Sequence record: DRR723986_2443
Direction: 5' to 3' (one strand)
DNA length: 64,000 nucleotides
Shown: in pieces, positions 18,559 to 60,171 of the stretch
Numbering within the stretch: position 1 is the first letter of the stretch
How the letters are laid out: each line of letters starts with the position of its first letter
Notes under the pieces: generated by a model
The model's input: the letters and a program-made list of their open reading frames with translations, nothing else
Told to the model about the DNA's origin: nothing
Databases searched by the model: none
Program-made: the position numbers and the translations under genes

Positions 18559-18600
18559 TGAATATCGCGAGCGCGCTTGCGCCGTTGGTAAGGATAAAAA

Positions 18601-20303: not shown

Positions 20304-20315
20304 TTGCTTTGTCGT

Positions 20316-20342: not shown

Positions 20343-20362
20343 TGTTGCCTATTTCATTTTTC

Positions 20363-22660: not shown

Positions 22661-22762
22661 CCCAGCACAACCCTTGTGGGCTGTATTGGAAGCCTCATGC
22701 TCAACACTGATACAAACAGCTTTGGGTAAGGCGTTAGCAATAGTAGCGGCCCACTTTTCGCG

Positions 22763-24222: not shown

Positions 24223-24789
24223 CTAAAGCTTTTCCGCTAGTACCAAGAAGCGTTTGGGTGTGGCCGGGTCAATCGCGTCGAATGGCCAACAGGTAATGAG
24301 CATAATCTGATCATTTGTTGGCGGCAGCAGAACGCCTTCACGGACATCATATATTCGAGTTTCGCTTACCCGGTAGGGTATGTCGCCCTGCGATGACTGG
24401 AACGAAAATTCATCGCCGCGCTGCACATGCTCTAGCACCGCAAAATGGGTGTCGCGGTGGCCAGACAGAACATGCGGGCCTTCCGGGCCATATTCTTCGT
24501 GCCGTCCAACACCAAAGGCCATGGCCTGATCAGTGGCGCGGTCCAGCACATGGATTTGCTGGCCGCCTACGGTTAGTTTGCCGAGTACGCCGAAATCTGC
24601 CCATGACCAGGGCTTAACCGGCGCGCCGGTTGCCTGCGCGCCGTCATGGGCAATGTCCAACAGGCTGTATGCCAGTCTTGCCTTAACCGGTATCCACAAG
24701 CCGCCCGCCAACAAAACCGCGCCCGAAAGCGCGGTTAGTATCATTAAGGCCTTTAGGCCTCTCACAAAGCTGCCCGTTGTTTGCGCCAC
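24223..24789 (-). CDS. Class GN (marine proteobacterial) sortase
   Basis: WIPVKA, PWSWAD, SGHRDTHF (His), LITCWPF (Cys), KRFLV (Arg); follows its VIT-vWA target. Confidence 0.9.
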   Translation of the reverse strand: MAQTTGSFVRGLKALMILTALSGAVLLAGGLWIPVKARLAYSLLDIAHDGAQATGAPVKPWSWADFGVLGKLTVGGQQIHVLDRATDQAMAFGVGRHEEYGPEGPHVLSGHRDTHFAVLEHVQRGDEFSFQSSQGDIPYRVSETRIYDVREGVLLPPTNDQIMLITCWPFDAIDPATPKRFLVLAEKL

Positions 24790-26900: not shown

Positions 26901-26988
26901 AGAGCAGGTCCTTGAAGTGGTACTGATGGGAACCGCAGTTTTAGGTTGTAAGCATGGCTTGATGATGCCGGAACCATGCCGGGTCCAA

Positions 26989-27014
26989 GGCAATGTTGGG
27001 GCAAATTATGGCAG
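26989..27014 (-). promoter_or_regulatory. Tandem GGCAA/TTGCC repeats, candidate OmpR-type response regulator site
   Basis: GGCAA at 26989 and 27000, GGCAG at 27010 (11 and 10 bp spacing), about 90-115 bp upstream of the sortase target start. Confidence 0.4.
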
Positions 27015-33494: not shown

Positions 33495-33878
33495 ATGCTG
33501 AAGTCACTGCTTTTAGCGGCGCTTTTTGTGCTGAATATCCAGAGTGTATATGCCGCTGATCAGACAAGGCCCGTGCGCGATGTCATTATTGTTGATGTGA
33601 ACGGCGACTTGGATGGGTTTCTTGATCGCATGAAGCGGGTGAAAGGTGTTGCCGACAGGCTGGAATTGCCGGTGACCATGAGGGTGTTTCAAGGCACCTT
33701 TGCAGGTCCGCAAAACGGTGATATTTTTCTTTACTGGGAGCTGCCGAGTTTCATTGAATTTGCCGAAGCCGAAACCGCGATACATCAGGATGCCGAATTT
33801 TTGGAAATTCTCGCAGAACTGGATGCAGCAGGTCAAAGCTTCAAGTCTGAGTTTCTGACGATTGAAATTACCAAATAA
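33495..33878 (+). CDS. Hypothetical exported protein
   Basis: GGAGG RBS, signal peptide (MLKSLLLAALFVLNIQSVYA), 127 aa. Confidence 0.7.
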   Translation: MLKSLLLAALFVLNIQSVYAADQTRPVRDVIIVDVNGDLDGFLDRMKRVKGVADRLELPVTMRVFQGTFAGPQNGDIFLYWELPSFIEFAEAETAIHQDAEFLEILAELDAAGQSFKSEFLTIEITK

Positions 33879-35942: not shown

Positions 35943-37661
35943 GTGAAGTGTATTATTAAAACAGCGGCGTTGATGGCAGCGCTTGCAGTGTCTGCATCGG
36001 TTCAGGCAAACGATGAAGCAGCACGCAAGTGGATTGACGCTGAATTCCAGCCTTCTACGCTGACCAAAGACCAGCAAGCTAGTGAAATGGCGTGGTTTGC
36101 CGCCGCCGCCGCGCCGTTCAAGGGCATGGAAATTAACGTGGTGTCAGAAACCCTGACCACCCATGAGTATGAAGCCAAAGTGCTGGCGCAGGCCTTTTTT
36201 GAGATTACCGGCATTCGGGTGAACCACGACCTGATCGGTGAAGGCGATGTGGTTGAAAAGCTACAAACCCAGATGCAGTCGGGTCGCAATATTTATGATG
36301 CTTACATCAACGACAGCGACCTGATCGGCACGCATTACCGTTACAACCAAGTGCGGAACCTGACCGACTGGATGGCAGGCGAGGGTGCAAGTGTGACGTC
36401 GCCAACGCTCGATATAGATGATTTCATTGGCAAAAGCTTCACCACCGCACCGGACGGAAAGTTATACCAGCTGCCGGACCAGCAATTCGCCAACCTATAT
36501 TGGTTCCGGTATGACTGGTTCACCAACCCTGACCTGAAAGCGCAGTTTAAAGCCAAATATGGCTATGATTTGGGCGTGCCGGTGAATTGGTCAGCTTATG
36601 AAGACATCGCCAACTTCTTCAGCAATGATGTGGGCGAAATTAACGGCGAAAAAGTATACGGCCATATGGACTACGGCAAGAAAGACCCGTCGCTAGGCTG
36701 GCGTTTCACCGATGCGTGGCTTTCGATGGCGGGTGCGGGCGATGTGGGCCTGCCCAACGGCAAACCGGTGGACGAATGGGGCATTAGGGTTGAAGGCTGC
36801 CACCCTGCGGGTTCAAGCGTAACACGCGGCGGTGCCACCAACGGCCCGGCGGCGGTGTATTCGGTGACCAAATATATTGATTGGTTGCAAAATTATGCCC
36901 CGCCAACCGCAGGCGGCATGACCTTTAGCGAGGCTGGCCCGGTTCCGGCGCAGGGGGCCATTGCCCAGCAAATTTTCTGGTACACTGCTTTTACCGCCGA
37001 CATGGTGAAGCCCGGCATTGCCGTCATGGACGGTGAAAGCCCCAAATGGCGCATGGCGCCAAGCCCGCGCGGCGCTTACTACGACGAAGGCATGAAGCTG
37101 GGGTATCAGGACACCGGCGCATGGACCCTGATGAAATCAACCCCGGTTGATCGGGCGCAGGCGGCTTGGCTTTATGCGCAGTTCGTTGTGTCCAAAACTG
37201 TGAGCTTGAAGAAAAGCCATGTGGGCCTGACCTTTGTGCGCGAAAGCGACATTTGGGATGATAGTATGACGGAGCGCGCGCCCGCGCTGGGTGGGCTGGT
37301 TGAATTTTACCGGTCTAACTCTCGTATTCTCTGGACACCCACCGGCACCAACATTCCTGATTACCCGCGCCTTGCACAGCTATGGTGGCAAGACATCGGC
37401 GATGCGATTTCGGGCGATAAAACCCCGCAAGAGGCCCTGGACAGCCTTGCCAACCAACAAGACCGTATCCTCCGCCGTCTTGAGCGTGCGAACGTGCAGA
37501 AAACCTGCGGGCCAAAGTTGAATGCGCCCAAGAGCGCTGATTATTGGCTCAACCAGCCCGGCGCGCCTAAAGCAAAACTGGCTAACGAAAAACCGCAGGG
37601 CGTGACTGTTGACTATGATGAGTTGATCAAATCGTGGGCGGCAGTGCCGAGAGGCGAATAA
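35943..37661 (+). CDS. ABC substrate-binding protein (GlpV-like)
   Basis: Signal peptide; EFQPSTL, VSETLTTHEYE, QLPDQQFANLYWFR, KKDPSLGWRFTDAW. Confidence 0.88.
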   Translation: MKCIIKTAALMAALAVSASVQANDEAARKWIDAEFQPSTLTKDQQASEMAWFAAAAAPFKGMEINVVSETLTTHEYEAKVLAQAFFEITGIRVNHDLIGEGDVVEKLQTQMQSGRNIYDAYINDSDLIGTHYRYNQVRNLTDWMAGEGASVTSPTLDIDDFIGKSFTTAPDGKLYQLPDQQFANLYWFRYDWFTNPDLKAQFKAKYGYDLGVPVNWSAYEDIANFFSNDVGEINGEKVYGHMDYGKKDPSLGWRFTDAWLSMAGAGDVGLPNGKPVDEWGIRVEGCHPAGSSVTRGGATNGPAAVYSVTKYIDWLQNYAPPTAGGMTFSEAGPVPAQGAIAQQIFWYTAFTADMVKPGIAVMDGESPKWRMAPSPRGAYYDEGMKLGYQDTGAWTLMKSTPVDRAQAAWLYAQFVVSKTVSLKKSHVGLTFVRESDIWDDSMTERAPALGGLVEFYRSNSRILWTPTGTNIPDYPRLAQLWWQDIGDAISGDKTPQEALDSLANQQDRILRRLERANVQKTCGPKLNAPKSADYWLNQPGAPKAKLANEKPQGVTVDYDELIKSWAAVPRGE

Positions 37662-42163: not shown

Positions 42164-42769
42164 ATGAAGACGCTGTGTATTATTTTATTGAGCCTTTTTT
42201 GCTCTGCCACAGGGTATGCTGACGCATTACCTGTAAAAGTAGTGGATGCGGGCGGCTCGCCCGTTGAAAACGCTATTATTACGCTAGAGCGGTCTGACGG
42301 GGAAAGCAAGATTGCGCCCGATGCCGATACCGAAAACTACAGAATGTCTCAGCGTAATTTACAGTTCCGCCCGTTTGTCCTCGTCGTACCTGTCGGCGCG
42401 GAGGTAGAGTTTCCCAATTTGGACCGGGTTCGTCACCACGTATATTCTTTTTCCAAGGGAAATCGGTTCCAATTGAAGTTATACGGCCGCGAAGAAGCCC
42501 GGTTTGTCACCTTTGAAAATGCGGGTGTGGCAGCCATTGGCTGTAACATTCATGATGACATGCTTGCCTTTATCAAAGTTACCGATGCTGTTGTGGTGGG
42601 TAAAACAGACGCTTTGGGCCAAGTAGAACTTGAGATGTCAAATGGAGAAGGCCGCATAAAAATATGGCATCCGTTCATTAAGGGTAATGAGATTGAGGTT
42701 GATCTTAGCCAGCAAGTTGCCGGTGAAGAAATGGTCATATCTATTGAAATAACGGACCCGTCTCAGTAG
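42164..42769 (+). CDS. Exported cupredoxin-domain protein (often annotated 'methylamine utilization protein')
   Basis: FPNLDRVRHHVYSFS ... GCNIHDDM (His, Cys-x2-His-x2-Met type-1 Cu ligands); signal peptide. Confidence 0.82.
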   Translation: MKTLCIILLSLFCSATGYADALPVKVVDAGGSPVENAIITLERSDGESKIAPDADTENYRMSQRNLQFRPFVLVVPVGAEVEFPNLDRVRHHVYSFSKGNRFQLKLYGREEARFVTFENAGVAAIGCNIHDDMLAFIKVTDAVVVGKTDALGQVELEMSNGEGRIKIWHPFIKGNEIEVDLSQQVAGEEMVISIEITDPSQ

Positions 42770-47072: not shown

Positions 47073-50000
47073 ATGCGATCAAAAAACACCGCATCGAAAG
47101 CCAGACGTGATGCAAGAGCTGCCGTAAGAGCACAGTACCGTATGGCGGAAGCTGATATTCTCGGCGACTTGATGAAATCATCAGCACCGAACGCACCGAC
47201 CCGGGCTAGGGCTTGCGCTAAAGCCATTGGTTTTGTTGAAACCTTGCGCGCCGAAAAAGACCTGGGCCTTATGGAAGTTTTCCTTGCTGAATACGGCTTG
47301 TCCACCGATGAAGGCGTTGCTTTGATGTGTTTGGCCGAAGCATTGCTGCGGGTGCCCGATACAGAGACAATCGATGCGCTGATTGAAGATAAAATAGTAC
47401 CATCCCGCTGGCAGGACCATGTGGGCGATTCTGAAAGTTCTCTGGTTAATGCGTCTACGCTTGCGTTGATGTTGGCGGGCAAGGTGTTGGACCCTGCGCC
47501 GCCTGCGGGCATATTGGCGGTTGTGCGCGGTGCTACCAAGCGCTTGGGCGAGCCGGTTATACGGGCAGCGGTTGCGCGGTCTATGAAATTGTTGGGAAAG
47601 CAATTTGTCCTCGGGCGCACCATTCAGGAGGCAGTGAAGCAAGGGGTACCGCAGGAAAAAGAAGGCTTTAGTTTTTCCTATGACATGCTCGGCGAGGCCG
47701 CGATGACGGCACGAGACGCTAAAGTTTACTATGATGCCTACAGCGCTTCGATTGCGTTTCTTGCCGAGAAATGCACAAACACCGATATTCGCGATAACCC
47801 GGGCATTTCAATTAAGCTATCTGCGCTGCATTCACGCTATGAAGAAAGCCAGCGTGACCGCGTTCTGACCGAAATGGTGCCTTTGGTAACCAAATTGGCG
47901 GTGGATGCGAAGACGGCAGGCATGGGCTTAAACATAGATGCGGAAGAAGCTGACAGGCTTGATCTATCGTTAGACATTATCGAAGCTGTGCTGCAAAACC
48001 CACGATTGGCCGGATGGGATGGTTTTGGCGTGGTGGTTCAGGCCTACGGTAAGCGCGCCGGGGCGGTTATCGATTGGTTATACCAATTGGCTTGTGACCT
48101 AAACCGCAAGATTATGGTGCGTTTGGTCAAAGGGGCATACTGGGATACGGAAATAAAGCGGGCGCAAGTAGACGGCGTGGCTGATTTTCCAGTGTTTGTG
48201 CGCAAAGCCGCCACCGATGTTTCTTATATTTGCTGCGCCCAAAAATTATTTTCCATGACAGACCGAATTTACCCGCAATTTGCCACCCATAATGCTCATA
48301 CAGTGGCAACAATTCTTGAACTAGCCGGTGAAGACAAACCATTTGAGTTTCAACGCCTGCACGGCATGGGTGAGGCGCTTTTGAACACCGTTATGCAACT
48401 AGAAAATTGCCGGTGCCGTATCTATGCGCCGGTAGGTGCACATAAAGATTTGCTGGCCTATCTTGTGCGCCGGTTGCTTGAAAATGGGGCCAATTCTTCG
48501 TTCGTTAATCAAATTATCGATGAAACGGTGCCTGCTCATGTGGTTGCGGCAGACCCTTTTGATACCCTTGAGAACACAACAGCTACAGTTGAAGGTGTTA
48601 TTGCTGTGCCGCCGAACCTATATGGTCCTAAAAGGCGCAACTCCAAAGGCTGGGATTTGCGCAATATCAGCGACATAAAAGCCTATGATGCTGCGCGCGA
48701 AACATTTAAAGCCCGCCAGTGGCGCGCCGAGCCAACCCATTATAACGGGCTGGGTGGAGAAACGGTTACAATAGCTAACCCTGCAAACGAGAAGGATGTG
48801 GTCGGGGTAGCTATTCATGCTGATGCATCCCTTGTTGAGGCGGCCATTGCCAATGCGCAGGCTTGGAATGCCCCGGTTGCCGAGCGTATAGGTATATTGC
48901 TCGCCGCTGCAGACTTGTTTGAAGATAACAGCGGTGAAATATTCGCCTTGTTAACCCGCGAGGCAGGCAAAACCCCGGTTGATGCGATCGCGGAACTGCG
49001 CGAAGCGGTTGATTTTTTGCGTTTTTATGCCGTTGAGGCTGCAAATCACGCCGATCGCAACCCATGCGGGTTGTTTGCTTGTATTTCGCCTTGGAATTTT
49101 CCGCTCGCCATATTCACCGGCCAAATTGTTGCGGCTTTGGTAACCGGTAACGGGGTTCTAGCGAAACCGGCTGAGGCCACGCCGCTAATTGCTGCCTTAG
49201 CGGTACGCCTGCTGCACAAAGCGGGTGTGCCAAAAACCGCATTGCAATTGGTGCCGGGAACAGGGCCAGTTGTTGGTTCTTTGCTTAGCAGTGACCCGCG
49301 CGTTGGCGGGGTTTGTTTCACGGGTTCAACGGCGACGGCTCAAACGATTAATCGCACCATGGCGCAGCATCTTTCGCCGCATGCCCCGCTTATAGCGGAA
49401 ACGGGGGGCATAAATGCCATGATTGTGGATTCCACCGCCCTTGCTGAGCAAGCTGTGCGGGACATTGTGGCGTCAGCGTTTCAGTCGGCGGGGCAGCGTT
49501 GCTCTGCCTTGCGCGTGCTGTATGTGCAGAAAGACATCGCTGATCATCTGCTCTCTATGCTTTATGGCGCTATGGATGAACTTGTGATTGCTGACCCTTG
49601 GCATTTTGATACGGACCTAGGTCCGGTGATTGACCAAAAGGCAAAAGCGGCAATTATCAAACACTGCCAGCAGGCCGAAACCGAAGGCCGTATTCTAAAG
49701 CAATTGTCCTGCCCGGCGGATGGTCATTTCGTTTCACCAACGGTGATCGCTGTAGATGGCATTGAGCAGCTAAAGCGTGAAATATTCGGACCTGTGCTGC
49801 ATGTGGCTACATTTGAATCTAATGAGATTGATGCCGTGATTGAGGCAGTCAATGCTACCGGCTTTGGCCTTACCTTTGGTTTGCACACCCGGATTAATGA
49901 CCGGGTTGACCATATCGCCCAGCGTATTCGTGTAGGCAACTTTTATATCAATCGTAACCAAATTGGTGCTGTGGTTGGCTCCCAGCCATTTGGCGGTGAA

Positions 50001-50579
50001 GGCTTGTCTGGCACGGGGCCGAAGGCAGGTGGCCCGCACTATTTAAAGCGCTTTTTGCGTGAAAATCACTGCCCCATCAAAACAGACGCTGGAGAGGCTT
50101 TGTTTGTGGATGAAGTTCAGCGAGCAATTGATTTTGTTGGCGTGACGGAGCAACGGCCTTTGGCCACCGTTGATATGCCCGGACCTACGGGAGAGAAAAA
50201 TCAATTGTCTGTGGTTCCGCGCGGGCTCATTTTATGTTTAGGGCCGACGGCAGAATGCGCAAAGCAGCAGGCTGAAATTGCGCGCGAGCAAGGCTGCGCG
50301 GCGCTGGTCGTTGCACCTGGTGCAGAAGGAACGCACGCTCTTTCATGTGTGTTGGAGCTTGATCATTTAGTAAGCCTAACGGGCTTCGCGGCTGTCGCTC
50401 ATTGGGGCGATGAAACAACACAACGCCAAGCCCATACTGCACTTGCGGCACGAAGCGGCGCGCTGATTCCGTTGTTCACTTCTATGGAAATGGCACATTG
50501 GTGTCATTTGGAGCGGCATATCTGTATTGATACAACAGCAGCGGGCGGCAATGCGTCACTGCTGTCTGCCGGTCTCTAG
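47073..50579 (+). CDS. putA: Bifunctional proline dehydrogenase / glutamate-semialdehyde dehydrogenase
   Basis: SYDMLGEAA, IDAEE, RLVKGAYWD, YLVRRLLENGANSSF, SPWNFPLAIF, AGQRCSA. Confidence 0.97.
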   Translation: MRSKNTASKARRDARAAVRAQYRMAEADILGDLMKSSAPNAPTRARACAKAIGFVETLRAEKDLGLMEVFLAEYGLSTDEGVALMCLAEALLRVPDTETIDALIEDKIVPSRWQDHVGDSESSLVNASTLALMLAGKVLDPAPPAGILAVVRGATKRLGEPVIRAAVARSMKLLGKQFVLGRTIQEAVKQGVPQEKEGFSFSYDMLGEAAMTARDAKVYYDAYSASIAFLAEKCTNTDIRDNPGISIKLSALHSRYEESQRDRVLTEMVPLVTKLAVDAKTAGMGLNIDAEEADRLDLSLDIIEAVLQNPRLAGWDGFGVVVQAYGKRAGAVIDWLYQLACDLNRKIMVRLVKGAYWDTEIKRAQVDGVADFPVFVRKAATDVSYICCAQKLFSMTDRIYPQFATHNAHTVATILELAGEDKPFEFQRLHGMGEALLNTVMQLENCRCRIYAPVGAHKDLLAYLVRRLLENGANSSFVNQIIDETVPAHVVAADPFDTLENTTATVEGVIAVPPNLYGPKRRNSKGWDLRNISDIKAYDAARETFKARQWRAEPTHYNGLGGETVTIANPANEKDVVGVAIHADASLVEAAIANAQAWNAPVAERIGILLAAADLFEDNSGEIFALLTREAGKTPVDAIAELREAVDFLRFYAVEAANHADRNPCGLFACISPWNFPLAIFTGQIVAALVTGNGVLAKPAEATPLIAALAVRLLHKAGVPKTALQLVPGTGPVVGSLLSSDPRVGGVCFTGSTATAQTINRTMAQHLSPHAPLIAETGGINAMIVDSTALAEQAVRDIVASAFQSAGQRCSALRVLYVQKDIADHLLSMLYGAMDELVIADPWHFDTDLGPVIDQKAKAAIIKHCQQAETEGRILKQLSCPADGHFVSPTVIAVDGIEQLKREIFGPVLHVATFESNEIDAVIEAVNATGFGLTFGLHTRINDRVDHIAQRIRVGNFYINRNQIGAVVGSQPFGGEGLSGTGPKAGGPHYLKRFLRENHCPIKTDAGEALFVDEVQRAIDFVGVTEQRPLATVDMPGPTGEKNQLSVVPRGLILCLGPTAECAKQQAEIAREQGCAALVVAPGAEGTHALSCVLELDHLVSLTGFAAVAHWGDETTQRQAHTALAARSGALIPLFTSMEMAHWCHLERHICIDTTAAGGNASLLSAGL

Positions 50580-51943
50580 TCCGTTTTGTTTTGCCCATTG
50601 AAACGCACAATAATTTCACCCAATGCCAGCAATACAATTGAACCGCTAAGCACCGGCCATTGAATGCCGCCCTCAGGTGTGTAGATAAACAATATAATCG
50701 TGATGCTTAGGATCAGAGTACATATGGTGGCCAACATAACCGGAAGCCAAGCTGGTCCGCCAATTTGAAAAGGCCTTTCGCGTTCGGGCTCAGTGCGGCG
50801 CAGTTTCAAATAAGCAAACATCATTGCCACATAAGGGATCATAAAAATAACGCCACTGAAGGCAAATAGAGAATAGAAAAGCTCTTCGTTGCTGCCCGCC
50901 AGAAAGCCGTAAAGCACTAGAATAACTGTGCTGGCTATGCCCAGTGCCACTGCGGCACCTACTGGAGTGCCATGTTTTTTGCTTTCCTTGGCGAAAAAGG
51001 CGGGCAACTCTCCTTCAATGGCGGCCTCAGCTGCAGCGCGGTTACTGCCCATTGCCCAGGTAACCCCATTAGAGAAAAACGTATAGAGCGTGCCGATAGC
51101 CAACAGAATTACAAACAATCTACCCAGGTCACTGCCACCAAAAAACAACATTAAAGTATCCACCAGGCCTTCAACCAAGTTGATGTTTGCAACAGGGATA
51201 GCAATCAAAACGGCAACAGTGGAAAGGATATATAGCGCAATGATAATAACGCCCGAAATAAGAATGCCGTAGGGTACGTCTTTCTTAGGGTTTTTTATCT
51301 CGTCGGCACCGGCGCAAATAAGTTCAAACCCCAGCATGCCGTATATGATGACCGGGAGATATTGCAGCCCGTCACCCAGATTGGGTGTGAGTGTAGCCAG
51401 TGAAATTTCGTTGGCGGCCCCATTTTCTGAAAAATACAGCGCCGCACCAATAATGACGGCGGCAAAAACAATCAGCTTAATCACCGCACCTACATTGGGA
51501 ACCCATTTACCGATATCGAGGGTAATGCTGTTCACCAGTACGGTTAGCCATGCCAGACCAACCCCAATCATGATTTGTCCCATTAGCGACATATCTGGCC
51601 AGAACAGCTGTTTGAAAATACCGGCAAATATAATGTAGATCGCGGGGCACCACACTGCCACGTTCACCCAGTAAGACCACGTTATACGCGAGGCCCAACG
51701 GCTTCCGTATGCACGGCGCACCCATGCGTAAATACCGCCTTGGTCAGGGTAGGCACAGCCCAGTTCTGCGGAGATTAACGAGAAAGGAATGAAGAAGACC
51801 AGCCCGAGAAAGACCCACCAAAAAATGCTGGAAGCACCGATAGCCGCACCGGCGGCGACAGTATCGAGCAATAAAATTGCTGAAATACAAAATAAGATGA
51901 TGTCTTTTTTGCCAATGACTTTTTCATGTTCAACAGATGCCAT
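50576..51943 (-). CDS. APC-family amino acid/polyamine permease
   Basis: About 12 TM helices; AELGCAYPDQGGIYAWV; GFEL; ERPF. Confidence 0.88.
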   Translation of the reverse strand: MASVEHEKVIGKKDIILFCISAILLLDTVAAGAAIGASSIFWWVFLGLVFFIPFSLISAELGCAYPDQGGIYAWVRRAYGSRWASRITWSYWVNVAVWCPAIYIIFAGIFKQLFWPDMSLMGQIMIGVGLAWLTVLVNSITLDIGKWVPNVGAVIKLIVFAAVIIGAALYFSENGAANEISLATLTPNLGDGLQYLPVIIYGMLGFELICAGADEIKNPKKDVPYGILISGVIIIALYILSTVAVLIAIPVANINLVEGLVDTLMLFFGGSDLGRLFVILLAIGTLYTFFSNGVTWAMGSNRAAAEAAIEGELPAFFAKESKKHGTPVGAAVALGIASTVILVLYGFLAGSNEELFYSLFAFSGVIFMIPYVAMMFAYLKLRRTEPERERPFQIGGPAWLPVMLATICTLILSITIILFIYTPEGGIQWPVLSGSIVLLALGEIIVRFNGQNKTD

Positions 51944-52033: not shown

Positions 52034-52951
52034 CTATTGCAGCAAGCCAAGCGTCGCTGCTTCGGTGCGGATGAAAGTTGCGGCGTCAATGTCAAATAGC
52101 CCATTACATGAAAGCATACTTGCGGGAAGACTGATCACCGGCAGTTCTTCTAAAAGCTGATTAACAAGCGGGCTTTGGGACAACGACCAGCGCGAAGCCG
52201 GGCGCGGCAATTCAAAATAGCTTGTGATGATTAGGTCAGGCTTGGTTTTGGCGATGGCTTCAAGCGGCAGGGGCTGCCAACCCTGCAAAGCATAGTCTTC
52301 GGCTACTGTGCCCAAGCCGGCCGCAGCGATGATCGAAGTCACGCTGGTGCCGGTGCCAGCCGTGTAACCGCTCGGGGTGACATAAAGCGCCTTTAAGTCA
52401 GATGGCGGCATGGCTTCAAGGTTTGCCTGCATTGCTTTCCGCTCGCTGACAAAAGCGCGGGCCTTGTCGCCGCGACCAATTTTACCGCCAAAATCAACAA
52501 GGGTTTGCAGCGCTTTGTCCGGCGAATTTGCAAACGGTATTGTATGCGCTTCAATGCCTGCTCGCTCAAAAAGGGTATCTATTTGAGGGCTACCGCGCCA
52601 ATGGCGCAAAACCATATCAGGGCCGGACGCAAGAATTTCCTCGGAGTTGCCCCTCAGATGAGGCATGCCAGCGGCGCGATTGCTAAAGAAGGAATAAACA
52701 CTGGAGGCATCGGCAGAAAGGCCCAATATTTGGTCTCTATCAGCAAGCGCCAGAACATATTGGTCAGAACAATAATCCAATGACAGTAACGTTGGTGATG
52801 ACTGAGTTTGCGCGTCTTTGTCCGTGTTGTTTGCCGCCGTGCTGCTCTGGTTTTCTCTCGCCGAAACGAATGGGTCTGGGTGTGCACAGCAGAGAAGACC
52901 CAGCAAGACAATGCGAGCAAGAGAAACATCTGTCAGGCAGCGTTTAATCAT
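52034..52951 (-). CDS. ABC substrate-binding protein, iron-siderophore/cobalamin (BtuF-like) family
   Basis: LSLDYCSDQYVLALAD, EEILASGPDMV, TAGTGT, LEAIAKTKPDLII. Confidence 0.75.
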   Translation of the reverse strand: MIKRCLTDVSLARIVLLGLLCCAHPDPFVSARENQSSTAANNTDKDAQTQSSPTLLSLDYCSDQYVLALADRDQILGLSADASSVYSFFSNRAAGMPHLRGNSEEILASGPDMVLRHWRGSPQIDTLFERAGIEAHTIPFANSPDKALQTLVDFGGKIGRGDKARAFVSERKAMQANLEAMPPSDLKALYVTPSGYTAGTGTSVTSIIAAAGLGTVAEDYALQGWQPLPLEAIAKTKPDLIITSYFELPRPASRWSLSQSPLVNQLLEELPVISLPASMLSCNGLFDIDAATFIRTEAATLGLLQ

Positions 52952-53225
52952 AGATCCTCATGTTCAACTCTGGTGTTGGAACAGACAACCAACCGTGCCT
53001 TTACAGCTAATGGGGCTATACCCAGTTGGCAATATAAACTTGGGTATCTATTGCCGGTACAATTTCCGAGTGGTGGCGGAATCATCACAATTAAGGGGTA
53101 TCAAGCGAAAAAACATACCAAACTGTCATAATAGCGTAGCATAGCGGCATGTCTTGAGGTATTTGACTATATAAAGAAAGCGTTCCAATTGATGGACGCA
53201 AAGAGATGAAGCAGGACTAATTGTA

Positions 53226-54089
53226 ATGTGCCCAGCTATTGTACCTGAGGGCCAGCAGCGCGGTTACCTCGTTCCCATAGGCGGAGCTGAGGACAAAGAA
53301 ACCAAACCAACCATTCTCAAACGGTTTACTGAAATTTGCGGTGGCTCAAAGTCACGTATTGTTGTGATCCCTACGGCGTCAAGGCTTGATGATACCGGTC
53401 GTATGTACCAAAAGCTGTTTAAGCGACTGGGAGCGGGGGATGTGTCTTACATTCCGATAACCAGCCGCGAGGATTGCGATAATCCGGATTATGCTGCTGA
53501 ATGCGATCAGGCAACTGGCATATTTATCACGGGCGGCAATCAGCTGCGGTTGACAACCATTTTGGGTGGGACAGCTGTGGCGCAGTCGATCCGGCGCGGC
53601 AACGCAGTCGGTGTTCACGTGGCAGGAACATCTGCTGGTGCCTCAATTATGGCGGAACATATGATGGCGGGTGGCCGTGGAGACGACGGTGCGCGCGAAG
53701 GCGGCGCCTCGCTTGCGCCGGGACTGGGTCTGACCAATGCAGCGATCATTGATCAACATTTTTCGGAGCGCAACCGTCTGGGTCGTTTGCTTTCAGCGGT
53801 GGCATATAATCCGTTTTTGTTTGGTGTTGGCGTTGACGAAGACACCGCTGCGTTCATTGACCCCTATAATGTGATTGAAGTGGTTGGCAGCGGCGGTGTT
53901 ACCATTGTTGATGGTTCGGGCCTGAAATATTCTTCACTAAGTCAGGCAAGGCAAGGCCAGGCATTGGGGCTTTTGGGGTTAAAACTCGATATATTGCATG
54001 AAGGTTGTCACTATGACCTGAATAACCGCGAGGCCTTTCCGCCTGCAGAGGACGGGCAGGGACATTGCAACATTTCGGTGGGAGACTAG
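53226..54089 (+). CDS. cphB: Cyanophycinase (intracellular)
   Basis: IGGAEDK, GIFITGGNQLRL, AGTSAGA (Ser), IDQHF (His), GVDEDT (Glu). Confidence 0.95.
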   Translation: MCPAIVPEGQQRGYLVPIGGAEDKETKPTILKRFTEICGGSKSRIVVIPTASRLDDTGRMYQKLFKRLGAGDVSYIPITSREDCDNPDYAAECDQATGIFITGGNQLRLTTILGGTAVAQSIRRGNAVGVHVAGTSAGASIMAEHMMAGGRGDDGAREGGASLAPGLGLTNAAIIDQHFSERNRLGRLLSAVAYNPFLFGVGVDEDTAAFIDPYNVIEVVGSGGVTIVDGSGLKYSSLSQARQGQALGLLGLKLDILHEGCHYDLNNREAFPPAEDGQGHCNISVGD

Positions 54090-54158
54090 CCGGGCTGGCC
54101 AGCAAAAGAAATAAATGACGAACACTTATAATTTATAATTCAAGTCGGGGGACGATCG

Positions 54159-56960
54159 ATGAAAATTCTTAGTAGCAATGTCTATGTTGGACCCAATATG
54201 TACGCGAAATTTCGCGTTATTCGACATGTGCTTGATTTGGGTGTTCTGGAAGATTGGCCATCGGTTAAACTCGGCAAAGGCTTCACAGAAGGCTTGGTAG
54301 AAGCCTTGCCAGGATTGGGTGAACATGGTTGTTCCTATAGAACAGAAGGAGGTTTTCTGCGCCGTTTGCGCGAGGACGAAGGTACTTGGATGGGCCACAT
54401 TATGGAACATGTGGCCATTGAATTACAGTGTGTTGCCGGTAACGCTGTAACCTATGGCAGAACCCGCTCAACTGGCGAGCCAGGCCAGTATAATATGGTT
54501 TATGCTTACAAGCACCGTGATGTGGGCTTGGCCGCTGGCCAGTTGGCGATAAAATTGTTAATGCATTTGTTGCCCGCTGAAGTTCAGGCGCAAGTTGACT
54601 ATGAAATTGAAGAAGACTTCGATTGGGATGATGAGTTAACTACCTTCATCCGCCGGGCACAGCGGCACGCATTTGGTCCCAGTACCGGGTCGCTTGTTGC
54701 TGCAGCAGAAGAGCGTGATGTTCCGTGGCTGCGGTTAAATGCGCATAGTTTGGTTCAGTTTGGTCACGGTAAGTATCAGAAGCGTATTCAGGCCACCATC
54801 ACCAGCGAAACCCGGCATATTGCCGTGGAAATATCCTGCGATAAGGAAGACACGCACCGCTTGTTAAATGACTTGGGCCTGCCGGTACCACAGCAATATA
54901 TGATTTACAGCCCGCGCGAGGCCGCACGCGCTGCCAACAAAATTGGCTTCCCTGTGGTGGTGAAACCCTTGAGCGCCAACCATGGCCGTGGTGTAACCAT
55001 CAACATCAACACTGACGAAGAAGCCCGCACGGCATTCGCTATGGCAAAAGAACAGGGCACCAGCCGTGCTGTATTAGTGGAAAGCTTTATCACCGGGTTC
55101 GACCACCGTATGTTGGTGGTAAACAATGAGCTTGTTGCTGTGGCAAAGCGCGTGCCGGGCCACATTGTGGGCGACGGCAAAAAAACCATTGTTGAATTGA
55201 TTGACAAGGTAAACGAAGACCCGCGCCGTGGCGTTGGCCACGAAAAAGTGCTGACGCGCCTTGAGATTGACGCACAAGCAACGCGCTTGATGGAAAAAGC
55301 CGGGTACGATGAGGACACCGTACTTAAGCAAGGCGAGGAATTTTATCTGCGTTCGACTGCGAACCTCTCTACTGGCGGCACGGCGGTGGATATGACCGAT
55401 GTGGTGCACCCCGATAACCGCGAAATGGCGGTGCGCGCGGTGCAGGCCGTTGGCCTTGACGTGGGCGGGGTTGATTTTCTCACCGATGACATCACCCAGT
55501 CATACAAAGACATTGGCGGTGCCATTGTTGAAGTGAACGCAGCGCCCGGTTTCCGTATGCATGTGGCACCCAGCGAAGGCACCCCGCGCGATGTATCCGG
55601 TAAAGTGATTGATATGCTGTTCCCGGTGGACACACCAAGCCGAATTCCCATTGCGGCAATTACCGGCACAAATGGTAAGACAACCACCTCGCGCATGCTG
55701 GCTAACATTATGAAAACATGTGGCTATACGGTGGGCCTTACCACAACTGATGGCATTTATGTGGACGGCAAACAAACTGTGAAAGGTGACACCACCGGGC
55801 CAAAGTCTGCTCAAATGGTGCTGCGCGACCCTACTGTTGATTTTGCCGTCATGGAAACGGCACGCGGTGGTTTGGTGCGCAGTGGTTTGGGCTACGAGTT
55901 CACGGATGTATCTGCTTGTTTGAATGTATCGAGCGACCATTTGGGTATGGGCGGCATTGAAACAATTGAACAGCTAGCCGAAATTAAACGCATCGTTGTA
56001 GAAGCAGCGCGGGGTACGGTTGTGTTAAACGCTGACGACCGTAACTGCCTAATGATGGCAGATTACTGCGATGCTCAGCATATTCTGTATGTAACCATGT
56101 CGCCCGAGCATACATTGGTGAAACAGCATATAAACCTTGGTGGCCGGGCGGTTGTGCTGGAAAAAGGCATGAACGGCGACATGATCACCATTTATGATAA
56201 CGGCACGCACATACCGCTTCTTTGGTCGCACCTTGTGCGCGCCACTATGGAAGGCCGGGCGCGGCACAATGTGCAGAACGCCATGTTCGCTGCTGCGATG
56301 GCCTATAGCTTTGATGTTGATCTGGACAAAATTCGCGATGGTTTACGCACCTTCAACACCAGCTTCTTCCAAGCGCCTGGCCGCATGAATGTATATGACG
56401 AGCATCCGTTCCGGGTCATTCTTGATTATGCACACAACGCAGCTGCTTTTGCTGCCATGGCAAATTTGGTTGGCCAGCTTGACGTACAGGGCAAACGCAT
56501 CGCAGTGATTGCTTGTCCGGGCGACAGGCGGGATGAGGACATTGTTGATAGTGCAGGCACCTTGGCCGGGCATTTTGACCATTATATTTGTAAAGCAGAT
56601 GATAACCGTCGCCGCCGTGGTGTGGATGAAGTACCGCAAATGATGCGCGCCGCTTTGATCAAAAACGGGGTCAGCGATGATGCTATTGAGGTTATTCCTG
56701 ACGAGCAGGAAGCCGTTATGGCAGGGCTGGAACATGCTCAGAAAGGTGATCTGCTGATCGTCTTCGGTGACAATGTGGTCCGTTGTTGGAAACAAATTAT
56801 TCATTACGGCGGAGATGAGCAGCAATCTGAGGGTGCAAGCAATGAAACACAGCCACTGGTGAGCGCCGCCTATGAAGACTTGATTGAAGATGATCAAAAG
56901 TTGATCAGTGATGATCGCGGTGTGCGTTTGGCCCGCGATGATGTTGAAGACGGCGACTAG
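54159..56960 (+). CDS. cphA: Cyanophycin synthetase (CphA1-type, N+G+M domains)
   Basis: N-domain C...HIMEH; ATP-grasp (VVKPLSANHGRGV, ANLSTGG, EVNAAPGFRMH); Mur domain (ITGTNGKTTT, ETARGG, DYAHN). Confidence 0.96.
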   Translation: MKILSSNVYVGPNMYAKFRVIRHVLDLGVLEDWPSVKLGKGFTEGLVEALPGLGEHGCSYRTEGGFLRRLREDEGTWMGHIMEHVAIELQCVAGNAVTYGRTRSTGEPGQYNMVYAYKHRDVGLAAGQLAIKLLMHLLPAEVQAQVDYEIEEDFDWDDELTTFIRRAQRHAFGPSTGSLVAAAEERDVPWLRLNAHSLVQFGHGKYQKRIQATITSETRHIAVEISCDKEDTHRLLNDLGLPVPQQYMIYSPREAARAANKIGFPVVVKPLSANHGRGVTININTDEEARTAFAMAKEQGTSRAVLVESFITGFDHRMLVVNNELVAVAKRVPGHIVGDGKKTIVELIDKVNEDPRRGVGHEKVLTRLEIDAQATRLMEKAGYDEDTVLKQGEEFYLRSTANLSTGGTAVDMTDVVHPDNREMAVRAVQAVGLDVGGVDFLTDDITQSYKDIGGAIVEVNAAPGFRMHVAPSEGTPRDVSGKVIDMLFPVDTPSRIPIAAITGTNGKTTTSRMLANIMKTCGYTVGLTTTDGIYVDGKQTVKGDTTGPKSAQMVLRDPTVDFAVMETARGGLVRSGLGYEFTDVSACLNVSSDHLGMGGIETIEQLAEIKRIVVEAARGTVVLNADDRNCLMMADYCDAQHILYVTMSPEHTLVKQHINLGGRAVVLEKGMNGDMITIYDNGTHIPLLWSHLVRATMEGRARHNVQNAMFAAAMAYSFDVDLDKIRDGLRTFNTSFFQAPGRMNVYDEHPFRVILDYAHNAAAFAAMANLVGQLDVQGKRIAVIACPGDRRDEDIVDSAGTLAGHFDHYICKADDNRRRRGVDEVPQMMRAALIKNGVSDDAIEVIPDEQEAVMAGLEHAQKGDLLIVFGDNVVRCWKQIIHYGGDEQQSEGASNETQPLVSAAYEDLIEDDQKLISDDRGVRLARDDVEDGD

Positions 56961-56975
56961 GTCAGGGGACGATAC

Positions 56976-58724
56976 ATGGTGATGACTGTTGATGAGCTGG
57001 AAACTGCTCTTTCAATTTCGGCCCCTGATGATGCGCGCTTGGTTGTTGATGATTGCAGGCGGTTAACAGGCCCTGGCCTTTTGTGGAAGACATATGGCGC
57101 TATTTTGGACTTGTTTGTCTCAGAAGACATCGACAAGAACGCTGTCGCGGAAGTTTGGGCGGAAGAGGCGCGGCGCACCCTTGATGATGTTGGCTGGTGG
57201 GCTGAAAAAACTATCGCTAGACAGTTCGAAAATGGTTTGAATTTGGCCATTTCAGCGCCGATTGATCAGCTCTATTCCGCTATTTTTGTGGCGCAAATTG
57301 CTTGGCATTTCACAGCACATCGTATGCTCGGAACAGAGCCAGATGATAGAACCAAAATGATTGCCGACGTACGCGGCGTTATGCGCGAGGAGGCCAACCC
57401 GGCGTTGGTGGCGCTGCAAAAAGAAGCGGACATCCGGGCGATTGATTTTCTTAGCGACGATGATCACGTTTCGCTTGGTCACGGTATTGGCTCGAAGACT
57501 TGGCCGGTGCGAGACTTGCCTGCTTTTGATGATATTCCCTGGAACAAGTTGCATAATTTACCGGTTGCGCTGATCACAGGCACCAACGGCAAGTCAACCA
57601 GTGTGCGCTTGTCAGCCGCCATTGGTGAGGCTGCCGGTATTGTCTCTGGCACCACATCAACGGATTATGTGAAAATTGGCGATGATATCTTGGATTACGG
57701 AGATTATTCCGGCCCCGGCGGCGCGCGCATGTTGCTGCGTGACAAACGCCTACAGTTAGCGTTTCTGGAAGTAGCCCGCGGCGGTATCCTTCGGCGAGGC
57801 CTGCCATTGCGTCAGGCGCAGGCGGCCATGGTGACCAACATTGCAGCGGATCATTTGGGCCAATACGGCGTGAATACGGTTGAGGCGTTGGCGGATGCAA
57901 AGTTTGCCGTTGCCCGCACTTTGGCATCGGACGGCACGCTTGTGCTCAACGCCGATGACCCGCTTGTGGTCAACAATGGTTTGAAAGCTGAGCGCAAAGT
58001 GTGCTGGTTCTCACTCAACCCTGAAAACCCGCGAATTATTGCCGCTCGGGCCTCCGGCGGCCTTTGCTGTTGGCTAGATGGCGGCATAATTCACTATTTT
58101 GACGGCTCAACTGCTACCACTGTTCTTGCTGCCGCAGACGCACCGATCACCATGGGCGGCCTTGCCCGCTTTAACATTCGCAATGTGATGGGAGCCTTGT
58201 GTTTGAGTAAGGCGCTGGGCATTTCAGATGCTGCCATTATGAAAGGTCTCACGTCTTTTGAAAGCAAGCCGGAGGATAACCCGGGTCGTTGTAACGAGTT
58301 TCAGGCCAAAGACGCGCGTATTTTCGTTGATTTTGCGCATAACCCCCATTCGGTTGAGGCGGTATCGGAAGCGCTTGCGCATATGCCGTCTAAGCGTAAA
58401 TTTCTGCTCATTGGCCACGCGGGTGATAGGTCTGATCAGGATATCACGGACCTGACCAATAGCGCCCTGGCGTTCGAGCCCGATCAGGTTGTTATCGTTG
58501 AATTGGAAGAATATTTGCGGGGCCGTGCATTAGGCGAGGTGAGCGATATTATTGAAAAAGCATGTTTAGAAAACGGATTGAAAGCGAATGTGCTTAGACG
58601 AGCGGATAGTCCGCCAGCGGGTACAAAGCTCATCCTGGATGATTTGCAGCAAGATGATTTAGCCTTGCTTCTGGTGCTGGATCAACGCGATGCGGTTTTT
58701 GATCTATTGAAAGCCGCCGGATAG
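56976..58724 (+). CDS. CphA paralogue / Mur-ligase-family protein lacking the ATP-grasp core
   Basis: RRLTGPGL CphA-like N-terminus; SLGHG, then ITGTNGKST, EVARGG, NIAADHLG, LNADD, NPGR, DFAHNP. Confidence 0.85.
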   Translation: MVMTVDELETALSISAPDDARLVVDDCRRLTGPGLLWKTYGAILDLFVSEDIDKNAVAEVWAEEARRTLDDVGWWAEKTIARQFENGLNLAISAPIDQLYSAIFVAQIAWHFTAHRMLGTEPDDRTKMIADVRGVMREEANPALVALQKEADIRAIDFLSDDDHVSLGHGIGSKTWPVRDLPAFDDIPWNKLHNLPVALITGTNGKSTSVRLSAAIGEAAGIVSGTTSTDYVKIGDDILDYGDYSGPGGARMLLRDKRLQLAFLEVARGGILRRGLPLRQAQAAMVTNIAADHLGQYGVNTVEALADAKFAVARTLASDGTLVLNADDPLVVNNGLKAERKVCWFSLNPENPRIIAARASGGLCCWLDGGIIHYFDGSTATTVLAAADAPITMGGLARFNIRNVMGALCLSKALGISDAAIMKGLTSFESKPEDNPGRCNEFQAKDARIFVDFAHNPHSVEAVSEALAHMPSKRKFLLIGHAGDRSDQDITDLTNSALAFEPDQVVIVELEEYLRGRALGEVSDIIEKACLENGLKANVLRRADSPPAGTKLILDDLQQDDLALLLVLDQRDAVFDLLKAAG

Positions 58725-58732
58725 TAATCGGG

Positions 58733-59632
58733 TCAGTCGCTGGGGTGAAAGGTTGTTGCTGACAATGCTCTGTCGGAGCTAACACTAGCGCGTTTCATGC
58801 CGTCAGAATTATAGGCCATGATAATGTCACCAGCTTTGTTAATGGCAATAACACCGCCGTCACCGCCCAGACTTTTAACATCGTCCAGCATACGCCAAAC
58901 GGCTTGTTGCAGTGTATCACCAGCCATTTCAATGGCATTTGCAATTTTACCAGCGCCGCCAGCCAAAATGTAATATTCGCCAATACCTGTGCAGGAAACA
59001 GCCACCTCAGTGTCGGCCCAGTTGCCGATGCCAGTTATGGGAGTGTCGCCCAAGCGGCCTTCTGGCTTGCCGAATACACCACCGGTGGAAGTTGCTGCGG
59101 CAAGTTTGCCTGCTGTGTCCAGGGCAACCGCGCCAACTGTACCATGTGAAAGTGTTTCGGTCTGGGTGTCCGCAAGGGTAGTGCCGTCTGGTAGGCGGTA
59201 ATAGTCACTGGCGTCATCTACAGTCGGAATACCTTGTGCTTTGGCGAATTTTGTTGCGCCTTCACCTGCCAGCATAACATAAGGCGTTTCATCCATAACG
59301 GCGCGCGCCGCACTTATTGGATGTTTGGTATCACGAATGGCCGCGACCGAACCTGCGTTTCTCATCGCACCGTCCATGATAGCCGCGTCCATTTCAACAT
59401 ACCCTGCGTTGTTCGTGGCTGACCCGCGCCCCGCTACATACAGGCCAGATGCTTCCATTTCTATGACCATTTTTTCAACCACATCAACGGCAGAAGAGCC
59501 GCCTGCGAGCATGTCTTCGCCGATTTTAGCAAGTCCAGCCAAATGGGCCTCGGCCGCCGAATAGTCACGGCCCTTAGTAGCGCCAGCACCACCGTGCAGG
59601 GCAAGAGCAAATTTTTGTGGTTTGTCTGTCAT
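58733..59632 (-). CDS. iaaA: Isoaspartyl peptidase / plant-type L-asparaginase
   Basis: [25 protein letters not shown] (Thr nucleophile), ATSTGG, GRLGDTP, SCTGIGE. Confidence 0.9.
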
Positions 59633-59769
59633 GGTTGGGCAGCTTTCATTTCATTGTCGCTGTGTAATTATGCGTTTCTTTACAGTCTCGCACATCAGAA
59701 TTGAAGAGTTTGTTTAATCCAGCAACCACTTTATTGCGTTTAAAGAGCAACATATTGAAAGGCTATATA

Positions 59770-60171
59770 ATGAATTTTTTGAAAGCATACATTGGTGTCC
59801 TTATCGTTTTTGTGATTTTGGATGCAATTTGGCTGGGTGTGGTTGCGGTAGATTTCTACGCTGAGAACATCGGTCACTTGATGGCGGAAAATGTTAACTG
59901 GGGCGCAGCCGTTGTGTTTTATGCCATGTATATTGCCGGCATTGCCTATTTTATTAGTATTCCTGCAGGTGAAATTGGCAGCCTTAAAAAGGCCCTTATT
60001 AATGGCACGCTATTTGGTGTCATTGCATATGGTACTTATGACTTAACCAACTTCGCAACCCTGCGCGATTGGCCGTTAAACGTTGTGGTTTACGACATGA
60101 TATGGGGTGGTTTCATAACCGCATCTGCCGCTATCGGTGGTTTCTTCGCGGTGCGCAAAAAAGTAGCTTAA
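59770..60171 (+). CDS. DUF2177-like membrane protein
   Basis: LDAIWLG, AYGTYDLTNFATLRDWP, DMIWG. Confidence 0.85.
   Translation: MNFLKAYIGVLIVFVILDAIWLGVVAVDFYAENIGHLMAENVNWGAAVVFYAMYIAGIAYFISIPAGEIGSLKKALINGTLFGVIAYGTYDLTNFATLRDWPLNVVVYDMIWGGFITASAAIGGFFAVRKKVA

Follow-up and report, generated by a model that had tools for sequence, protein, structure and literature searches.

We analyzed a 64,000-nucleotide stretch of sequence record DRR723986_2443 (the window) and identified, immediately downstream of a gene for a full-length cyanophycin synthetase (cphA1), a second gene whose product resembles CphA1 at both ends and lacks most of the G domain in between. This 582-residue paralogue is a member of a family of N-M cyanophycin synthetase paralogues that is old and widespread and has not yet been given a name. 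Cyanophycin synthetase (CphA) is a rare template-free amino acid polymerase and a production enzyme, and its published forms are CphA1, which has three active sites, and CphA2, which has only the G activity. Judged by its sequence, the paralogue would be a third form of CphA that retains the M site only, is widespread, and is inherited with one clade of CphA1. The family conserves its architecture and the residues reported for ATP binding, Mg binding, and catalysis; it has an ancestry separate from that of CphA1, and it is linked to cphA and has diverged together with a single CphA1 clade. On balance, we think that the paralogue is probably an active ATP-dependent amide ligase in cyanophycin synthesis and that it partners the CphA1 encoded upstream.

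The paralogue joins an N domain to an M domain

Pfam matched the paralogue only to Mur_ligase_M (residues 200 to 410, 70 bits against a gathering cutoff of 24) and Mur_ligase_C (residues 437 to 565, 41.2 bits against 28.4), which places it in the Mur ligase superfamily; neither an ATP-grasp family nor PF18921 was found in it at an E value of ≤0.01. The neighboring CphA matched PF18921, six ATP-grasp families above their curated cutoffs, and both Mur domains. The cyanophycin synthetase models fell short on the paralogue: TIGR02068 covered it over model positions 474 to 859 only (333.7 bits versus a cutoff of 850), and NF010623 scored 291.7 versus a cutoff of 877. BLASTP likewise aligned the paralogue with the neighboring CphA in the M region only, at 29% identity (E = 9e-45). 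The GHG and GTNGK motifs, which lie 301 residues apart in CphA (residues 202 to 204 and 503 to 507), are 34 residues apart in the paralogue (residues 168 to 170 and 202 to 206).

A structure model of the paralogue was built with AlphaFold2 from 30 family members and had a mean predicted local distance difference test (pLDDT) score of 89.7 and a predicted template modeling score of 0.83. Its best PDB matches in Foldseek were complete CphA1 chains (for 7lgj_A, E = 5.5e-40, with a template modeling score of 0.81 on the query over 880 columns), and MurE and other Mur ligases trailed these at E values of 6e-20 or worse. Since the match runs along the whole chain, both ends of the 582-residue model superpose on the 870-residue enzyme with a large gap between them. 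Profile alignment with hhalign placed residues 22 to 176, which span the N-terminal (N') region, on CphA residues 1 to 210 (E = 8e-5, probability of 61%), and an Atlas lead connected the N' domain to a PF18921 cluster with a score of 0.80. The Cx19HxxEH peptidase site of the CphA N domain is absent: no HxxEH occurs in residues 1 to 190 of the paralogue, and the columns that hold CphA C58 and H80xxE83H84 have no counterpart in the profile alignment.

At the junction between the two domains, residues 142 to 174 of the paralogue aligned with CphA residues 174 to 208, the helix and hairpin that open the G domain and include its GHG motif (E = 2.5e-4 with a profile of 69 family sequences). A shallower profile had put residues 152 to 167 at the end of the G domain instead. 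We rejected that register, as the match to the last G strand spans only 8 columns with the deeper 69-sequence profile (E = 0.028). From its N to its C terminus, the paralogue has an N domain, a stretch of roughly 35 residues from the start of the G domain, a short linker, and a full M domain with its lid. The size of the missing G segment, about 265 residues, is firm, and the exact borders of the deletion are moderately supported. Because the ATP-grasp G domain is gone, the paralogue should be unable to extend the Asp backbone.

These analyses bear out the architecture given in the initial annotation of the gene, which had been made from the sequence alone. The motif positions and the 301-versus-34 spacing it gave were reproduced exactly on both proteins, its estimate that about 267 residues of ATP-grasp core are missing is close to ours, and the register it assumed, GHG to GHG, is the better supported of the two. 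The absence of the N-domain C/HxxEH site, the retention of the P-loop, EVARGG, DH, NADD, PGR, and DFAHN motifs, and the 15-bp distance from cphA were all as described there. The structural comparison with CphA1, which it had suggested as a check, gave the whole-chain match reported above.

The M-domain active site is conserved

The M' domain of the paralogue aligned with the profile of a solved CphA1 at an E value of 2.7e-75, with positions 194 to 564 falling on chain residues 488 to 854, and with a CphA1 profile in hhalign at an E value of 1.7e-80. It keeps EVARGG at residues 264 to 269, DH at 292 and 293, NADD at 325 to 328, PGR at 436 to 438, and DFAHN at 452 to 456. PMC9427784 and PMC9262961 report residues for ATP or Mg binding or for M activity, namely, K499, T500, T522, E558, F692, R731, and H748 of TeCphA1 and D585 and H586 of SuCphA1. 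In the order K499, T500, T522, E558, D585-H586, F692, R731, and H748, these positions align to K206, S207, T229, E265, D292-H293, F399, R438, and H455 of the paralogue. The arginine of the E. coli MurE DNPR motif aligns to paralogue R515. When 32 family members were compared with 70 CphA1s, 42 M-domain positions had the same residue in both groups with conservation of at least 90%, and a single position was conserved but different (G249 in the family, S550 in CphA1).

The same residues are strict within the family. In the window protein and its 120 close homologues, the P-loop and the NADD, PGR, AHN, GDR, and LRGR motifs are present in 121/121, EVARGG is present in 119/121, and DHLG is present in 117/121. 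Among 62 diverse full-length representatives, 60 have the P-loop and 59 have RGR, and looser patterns of the other motifs occur in 45 to 60. Conservation of this kind at the M site speaks for a functioning enzyme and against a relic. A role without catalysis, as a structural or regulatory subunit bound to CphA1 or to cyanophycin, would agree with a partner CphA1 that already has all three active sites, with an N' domain that keeps a fold of the polymer-anchoring type, and with the faster evolution of the paralogue relative to CphA1 (mean identities of 44% and 66%). However, the P-loop, the Mg ligands, the DH pair, and the residues of the lid are strictly retained in 117 to 121 of the 121 close members and in most of the 62 distant ones, which would be hard to account for without catalysis, and we regard a non-catalytic role as quite improbable.

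Some positions around the M site distinguish the family from CphA1. The family has conserved basic residues of its own near the site (R251, R255, and R274), and it does not keep R791, E849, and F806, which are conserved in CphA1; R791, in the GDRRD loop, is mostly replaced by Ser. These losses, together with the G249 for S550 replacement, would fit a side-chain ligase of another specificity (Lys, Orn, citrulline, Glu, or another residue) that gives a mixed or variant polymer, and some CphA1s do incorporate Lys (PMC10206079). Against such a change, the MurE DNPR-equivalent arginine, LRGR, and GDR are common to the family and CphA1, and we consider a ligase for a different residue improbable. 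We also considered whether CphA1 E849 corresponds to the Glu with which the GHE motif of MurE binds substrate, an assignment that was contradicted by a profile alignment to E. coli MurE.

The family is widespread and has its own ancestry

The 120 homologues listed for the window protein are 57 to 88% identical to it over 99 to 100% of its length; all are 578 to 611 residues long and have the P-loop near residue 200. Their source names are "Mur ligase family protein," "UDP-N-acetylmuramyl tripeptide synthase," and "cyanophycin synthetase." In a search of 1.84 billion cluster representatives, the first 195 residues matched 465 clusters (50% identity) at an E value of ≤1e-3 and 224 at ≤1e-10. Among the 150 clusters listed, 62 have representatives of 540 to 625 residues, and the others are shorter or fragments; none has the length of CphA1. 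Family members were seen in Proteobacteria, Acidobacteriota, Planctomycetota, and Myxococcota. Neither Pfam nor NCBIfam 20.0 has a curated model for the whole paralogue or for its N' domain, and full-text literature searches returned no paper that describes a G-less CphA paralogue or the CphA1 tail presented below, with an earlier mention possible in subscription papers or reviews.

We built a maximum-likelihood tree of 110 M domains that included 32 family sequences, 70 CphA1s, and a group of Actinobacteria and Chloroflexi proteins. The family forms one side of a branch with a Shimodaira-Hasegawa-like approximate likelihood ratio test (SH-aLRT) value of 99, and all 70 CphA1 M domains fall on the opposite side of the tree. 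The sister group of the family (SH-aLRT, 95) consists of the Actinobacteria and Chloroflexi proteins, which are about 560 to 615 residues long and have a CphA-type N domain joined directly to the M domain (hhalign probability of 96%, E = 2.5e-9). Since this sister family shares the CphA-type N domain, the N-M arrangement without a G domain seems to be ancient and to have had, in all probability, a single origin. An approximately unbiased (AU) test rejected a grouping of the family with the M domains of its partner CphA1s, which was 242 log-likelihood units worse (P = 5e-84); the tested group was chosen after the tree had been seen. Members of the Actinobacteria and Chloroflexi group were seen in the genome scan at loci L010 (5656-7341), L013 (5500-7338), L016 (7432-9189, minus strand), L038 (5352-7058), L063 (7963-10224, minus strand), L066 (4961-6658), and L067 (5291-7138), as well as at L026 and L044. 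A cphA homologue lay inside the fetched flanks at 10 of 12 such loci, mostly in convergent orientation, and L026 had none within 6 kb.

These results change one part of the initial annotation. Its description of the paralogue as a CphA with the core deleted, if taken to mean a deletion derivative of the neighboring gene, does not hold, given the 29% identity of the M regions and the AU test. The alternative that it had named, decay in a single strain, is not what we found, since the 120 listed homologues are of uniform length (578 to 611 residues) and 465 clusters match the N-terminal part. Its statement that no characterization of this architecture was known agrees with our searches, which found no curated family and no describing paper.

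An ordinary cell wall or folate Mur-type ligase that lies beside cphA by chance, or a decaying cphA copy, is the reading closest to the existing labels: PGAP names the protein "Mur ligase family protein," JGI names it "UDP-N-acetylmuramyl tripeptide synthase," and MurE models match it at E values of 1e-22 to 1e-23, far under their cutoffs. The M' domain is, however, far nearer to CphA1 (E = 2.7e-75) than to the best Mur ligase (2.4e-12), and the protein has a CphA-type N domain in place of the UDP-binding domain, for which Pfam gave no match at an E value of ≤0.01. A cphA gene adjoins the paralogue at every informative locus (14/14; see below), and length and motifs are kept across hundreds of clusters. 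We rejected the pseudogene and cell wall Mur ligase readings on the grounds of conserved length, conserved motifs, the CphA-type N domain, and cphA linkage, and we give them hardly any probability.

The paralogue is linked to cphA and has diverged with it

Gene neighborhoods were taken from a genome scan that yielded 77 loci among the matches listed; these are distant relatives (34 to 43% identity) and include none of the 57 to 88% homologues. The N' domain is present at 11 of the 77, one of which is a 3.1-kb contig without flanking sequence. At all 10 of the flanked N' loci among these matches, a cphA homologue adjoins the paralogue. The paralogue lies directly downstream of cphA on the same strand, within about 35 bases, at eight of them; at one it lies 2 kb downstream, and at one the two genes are convergent and 6 bases apart. 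A cyanophycinase gene is present at 9 of the 10. Plasmid records that match the N' region, from two Ruegeria plasmids, Shinella zoogloeoides ATCC 19623, and Roseateles sp. XES5, have the order cyanophycinase, cphA, and "Mur ligase family protein" in 4/4 cases, with 12 to 14 bases between cphA and the paralogue in the three records that were read. Two proteins with Tara coordinates are also adjacent on one contig. In total, cphA stands beside the paralogue at 14 of 14 informative loci outside the window (10 genome loci among the matches listed and 4 plasmids) and in the window itself; homologues unlinked to cphA, the outcome that the initial annotation had named as adverse, did not turn up.

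The two proteins of a pair have also diverged together. Over 13 linked pairs, the pairwise identities of the paralogues correlate with those of their CphA1s (r = 0.88), with a mean identity of 66% for CphA1 and 44% for the paralogue, which shows that the paralogue diverges faster than its partner. The partner CphA1s form one clade (SH-aLRT, 100), which lies inside a larger clade (SH-aLRT, 99) with the CphA1s that are partnered to the Actinobacteria and Chloroflexi N-M proteins.

Two loci of the scan had unusual genes. At the convergent locus, L001, from a metagenome-assembled genome of the Thermoanaerobaculia, the cphA beside the paralogue (7720-9531, minus strand) encodes a degenerate protein of 603 residues. 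This protein has lost both the G lid region and the DH pair, has GSFGK as its P-loop, and lacks an M lid, whereas the paralogue at this locus looks intact. The cyanophycinase open reading frames (ORFs) at L001 (9615-11348, minus strand) and L038 (9893-11512, minus strand) encode 577 and 539 residues, respectively, versus the usual 280 to 300 or so, and may be fusions, extended proteins, or overlong ORF calls.

Partner CphA1s carry a C-terminal tail that ends in Asp

To define features specific to the clade, 15 partnered CphA1s were compared with 38 others. Past about residue 885, the CphA1s that are partnered with an N'-type paralogue, and only those, continue into a variable linker of Pro, Ala, and acidic residues, which is roughly 20 to 100 residues long (about residues 885 to 904 in the window CphA1). 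The linker leads to a conserved tail with the consensus (Y/F)E(D/E)(L/M)..., followed by L(I/V)(S/R)D.RGVRLAR..E(D/E)(G/A/S)D-COOH. The tail and its final Asp are present in 13/13 partner CphA1s with a complete end (the window, nine genome loci, and three plasmids). Among close homologues of the window CphA1, 121/121 have RGVR within the last 30 residues, 120/121 have the terminal Asp (the exception is named "partial"), and 118/121 end in E[DE][GASN]D-COOH. Neither the tail motif nor the terminal Asp was found in any of the 38 other CphA1s or in any of five partner-type CphA1s from Actinobacteria and Chloroflexi. The L062 CphA1, a sister sequence with no visible paralogue, ends in ETED and lacks the tail motif. 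The Asp-ended tail occurred only on partner CphA1s in this comparison; it is new here, with no description found in the literature searched. The tail-bearing sequences are those of the window, L002, L004 to L009, L017, L034, and L079 to L081. The initial annotation had not noted the tail, which is the most telling part of the context of the paralogue.

Partner CphA1s also have an insertion of 4 or 5 residues (xNGx, with an invariant Gly) in a hairpin of the M core, at residues 671 to 674 of the window CphA1 (56169-56180). The insertion is shared by the CphA1 partners of both N-M families and by some relatives within the clade, and all 38 other CphA1s lack it. W672 of SuCphA1 lies in the hairpin that carries the insertion, and PMC9262961 reports that mutation of W672 to Ala turns the tetramer dimeric. 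The C...HxxEH motif and the M catalytic residues are invariant in 44/44 aligned CphA1s.

Section 10 of PMC9427784 states that binding by the M domain requires a C-terminal Asp that is not modified with Arg. Given this requirement, the terminal Asp of the tail, with its free beta-carboxyl, is of the M-site substrate type. The paralogue might be an initiator or priming ligase that takes over the slow opening steps at which CphA1 performs poorly. It could arginylate the C-terminal Asp of the tail and so create a protein-borne primer, ligate free Asp with Arg, or use very short oligomers as acceptors; the G and M sites of CphA1 would then extend the product, and the N-domain peptidase would free primers. 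Several features suit such a role, namely, the flexible linker and the tail ending in [G/A/S/N]-Asp-COOH in 13/13 linked cases versus 0/38 others, the fit of that end to the M-site requirement, the primer-releasing C...HxxEH site retained by all partner CphA1s, and the extra conserved arginines near the active site of the family. In the published model, moreover, CphA1 starts chains truly de novo only at a very slow rate (PMC9262961). The argument is inferential throughout, however, and the tail could instead be a docking, oligomerization, or regulatory element; a CphA2 hexamer is described as using its C terminus for dimer-dimer contacts (PMC10273328). The tail and the paralogue are both confined to the same clade, so one evolutionary event may account for their joint occurrence, and the partners of the sister N-M family have no such tail (0/5). 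We regard an initiator role as unlikely.

A stricter form of this idea is protein-primed cyanophycin synthesis, in which the CphA1 tail would be a built-in primer and the paralogue a dedicated initiator that recognizes RGVRLAR. The paralogue would place the first Arg on the beta-carboxyl of the tail Asp, CphA1 would elongate its own tail, and the peptidase would cut the chain to seed primers. Such a scheme would be similar to glycogenin, RimK-S6, and LysX-LysW, and it seems to us somewhat less likely again.

A model for the paralogue in cyanophycin synthesis

As an active amide ligase that partners CphA1, the paralogue would carry out an M-type reaction in which the beta-carboxyl of an aspartate is activated as an acyl phosphate and is then joined to the alpha-amine of arginine or of an amino acid like it. 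Its acceptor would be cyanophycin or a precursor, and it would act in trans on chain ends or short precursors. It would be coupled to CphA1, possibly through the C-terminal tail. We infer the catalysis from the conserved M site and the partnership from linkage, co-divergence, and the tail.

Several points weigh against this model. Linkage and co-divergence show co-inheritance, not binding, and the linkage sample is small, with members that are phylogenetically related. A weak search for natural fusions of the paralogue with CphA1 found none among proteins of 1,020 to 2,910 residues that have the N' region. The N' domain escaped detection by Pfam, NCBIfam, and profile-versus-PDB searches, and its homology to the CphA N domain is indicated mainly by the predicted fold together with a modest profile match. 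The specificity for acceptor or amino acid may differ from that of CphA1, given R251, R255, and R274 and the loss of R791, E849, and F806. Finally, the M domain of the partner CphA1 is itself fully intact, so that it is not obvious why another site for the addition of Arg would be needed, and a specialized role is more plausible than redundancy. The paralogue might initiate chains on acceptors that are very short or borne on a protein, fill in unmodified Asp residues, or add another residue. Chain capping and hetero-oligomerization with CphA, which the initial annotation had proposed along with a residue other than Arg, are likewise candidate roles.

If active, the paralogue would be a stand-alone isopeptide ligase for Asp side chains, which would be useful in polymer tailoring, and it would offer a direct experimental route to an open question, the origin of the first chain or primer in the cell. 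It may help to explain the start or the completion of cyanophycin. Genome annotation now labels these genes as cell wall-type Mur ligases, and reconstructions of nitrogen-storage metabolism, in marine Alphaproteobacteria as in other groups, are misled as a result.

The cyanophycin gene cluster and its surroundings

The paralogue is the third gene of a four-gene, operon-like local cluster (cyanophycinase, cphA1, paralogue, and isoaspartyl peptidase) that spans the synthesis and breakdown of cyanophycin (Table 1). The cphA stop codon, TAG, is at 56958-56960 and is separated from the ATG of the paralogue by 15 bases, and 8 bases lie between the stop codon of the paralogue and the end of the convergent peptidase gene. 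An amino acid permease gene and putA lie upstream of the cluster. Scans of 52900-59800 for promoters and terminators found sites no more commonly than in shuffled sequence, and Rfam and tRNA scans of the window gave no matches.

Genes for the catabolism of nitrogen compounds are abundant around the cyanophycin cluster (window positions 10262-24067 and 47073-51943). They encode xanthine dehydrogenase (xdhABC), a urate oxidase N-domain protein, hydroxyisourate hydrolase, OHCU decarboxylase, allantoinase PuuE, allantoicase, ureidoglycolate lyase, guanine deaminase, PutA, and an amino acid permease. A class GN ("marine") sortase and its marine proteobacterial sortase target protein are encoded at 24223-26993 on the minus strand, which would fit a marine proteobacterium. 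Neither Pfam nor NCBIfam, at the thresholds applied, matched three ORFs on the plus strand: 35943-37661 (572 residues), which is flanked by genes for a tetratricopeptide repeat protein and a PvdQ-like acylase, 42164-42769 (201 residues), and 33495-33878 (127 residues).

Table 1. Features of the cyanophycin cluster in the window (aa, amino acids)
Feature	Coordinates	Strand	Evidence
Cyanophycinase, cphB-type, 287 aa; opens the cluster	53226..54089	+	TIGR02069, 247 bits versus cutoff of 126.6; Pfam Peptidase_S51
cphA1, full-length cyanophycin synthetase, 933 aa, N+G+M; C58...H80xxE83H84 kept	54159..56960	+	TIGR02068, 1135.6 bits versus cutoff of 850; NF010623, 1143; PF18921, ATP-grasp, and Mur domains
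Conserved C-terminal tail of CphA1, aa 905-933, YEDLIEDDQKLISDDRGVRLARDDVEDGD, last residue Asp	56871..56957	+	Comparison of homologues
AGGGGA, likely ribosome-binding site, 6 bases 5' of the paralogue ATG	56964..56969	+	Read from sequence; putative function
G-less paralogue, N-M cyanophycin synthetase relative, 582 aa, ATG start	56976..58724	+	ORF, Pfam, profiles, AlphaFold2 model
N' domain of paralogue, aa 1-141, CphA-type N fold without Cx19HxxEH; invariant RRxTGPG at aa 28-34	56976..57398	+	Foldseek, hhalign
G-domain start remnant of paralogue, aa 142-176, helix and beta hairpin, GHG at 168-170	57399..57503	+	hhalign; pLDDT about 90
M' domain of paralogue, aa 194-582, Mur-ligase core and lid	57555..58721	+	Profile versus solved CphA1; hhalign
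P-loop GTNGKS of paralogue, aa 202-207	57579-57596	+	Sequence
Isoaspartyl peptidase, IaaA-type, Asparaginase_2; convergent	58733..59632	-	Pfam PF01112, E = 1e-70

Comparison with known systems

The closest known relative of the paralogue is CphA1 (SuCphA1, 7LG5 and 7LGJ; TeCphA1, 7WAC), with which it shares the whole-chain fold of the N and M domains, the reported M residues, and a place in the same gene cluster. Unlike CphA1, it lacks about 265 residues of the G domain and the Cx19HxxEH site, a primer-generating peptidase site that is present in 83% of CphA1s according to PMC9262961. It is also only 29% identical to the M domain of its neighbor, scores under the TIGR02068 cutoff, and stands apart on the tree from all 70 CphA1 M domains. 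CphA1 has the N-G-M order and three active sites; in CphA2, the G domain is active, and the M domain is truncated and inactive (PMC10273328). The paralogue resembles CphA2 as a reduced CphA family member with one biosynthetic active site left, but the reduction is the opposite one, with no G domain and a full-length M domain with its lid (Mur_ligase_C, residues 437 to 565), so that "mirror image of CphA2," as the paralogue had first been labeled, is a fair description. The same source presents CphA2 as a specialized cyanobacterial enzyme, whereas the paralogue family is found in other phyla.

The Actinobacteria and Chloroflexi N-M proteins are similar to the paralogue in being its sister group, in having a CphA-type N domain joined to an M domain, and in lying near cphA. 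They differ in that they have no remnant of the G-domain start, are missed by the N' hidden Markov model, are mostly convergent with cphA, and have partner CphA1s without the tail (0/5). We found no characterization of these proteins either. Tandem cphA/cphA' pairs of Betaproteobacteria, reportedly described by Krehenbrink in 2002 and by Fuser and Steinbuchel in 2007, also place a second cphA-like gene directly beside cphA, and we saw such pairs among the matches listed at L021, L024, L031, L033, L045, L047, L061, and L072 to L074. In those pairs, unlike in the window, the G domain is present in both genes, the first of which encodes 688 to 769 residues with a weak M domain and the second 856 to 872 residues.

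Mur ligases (MurE and relatives), MurT, PgsB, and FolC share with the paralogue the central and C-terminal Mur domains, the P-loop, and the DNPR-equivalent arginine. The N terminus of the paralogue is instead of the CphA type, its similarity to these enzymes is far weaker than that to CphA1, and all curated Mur models score far under their cutoffs, the best being TIGR01085 at 82.9 bits versus 257.3. RimK, which acts on ribosomal protein S6, and LysX, which acts on LysW, are ATP-dependent ligases for a C-terminal acidic residue of a protein. They are ATP-grasp enzymes that act on Glu, unlike the paralogue, and are an analogy for the protein-priming scheme only.

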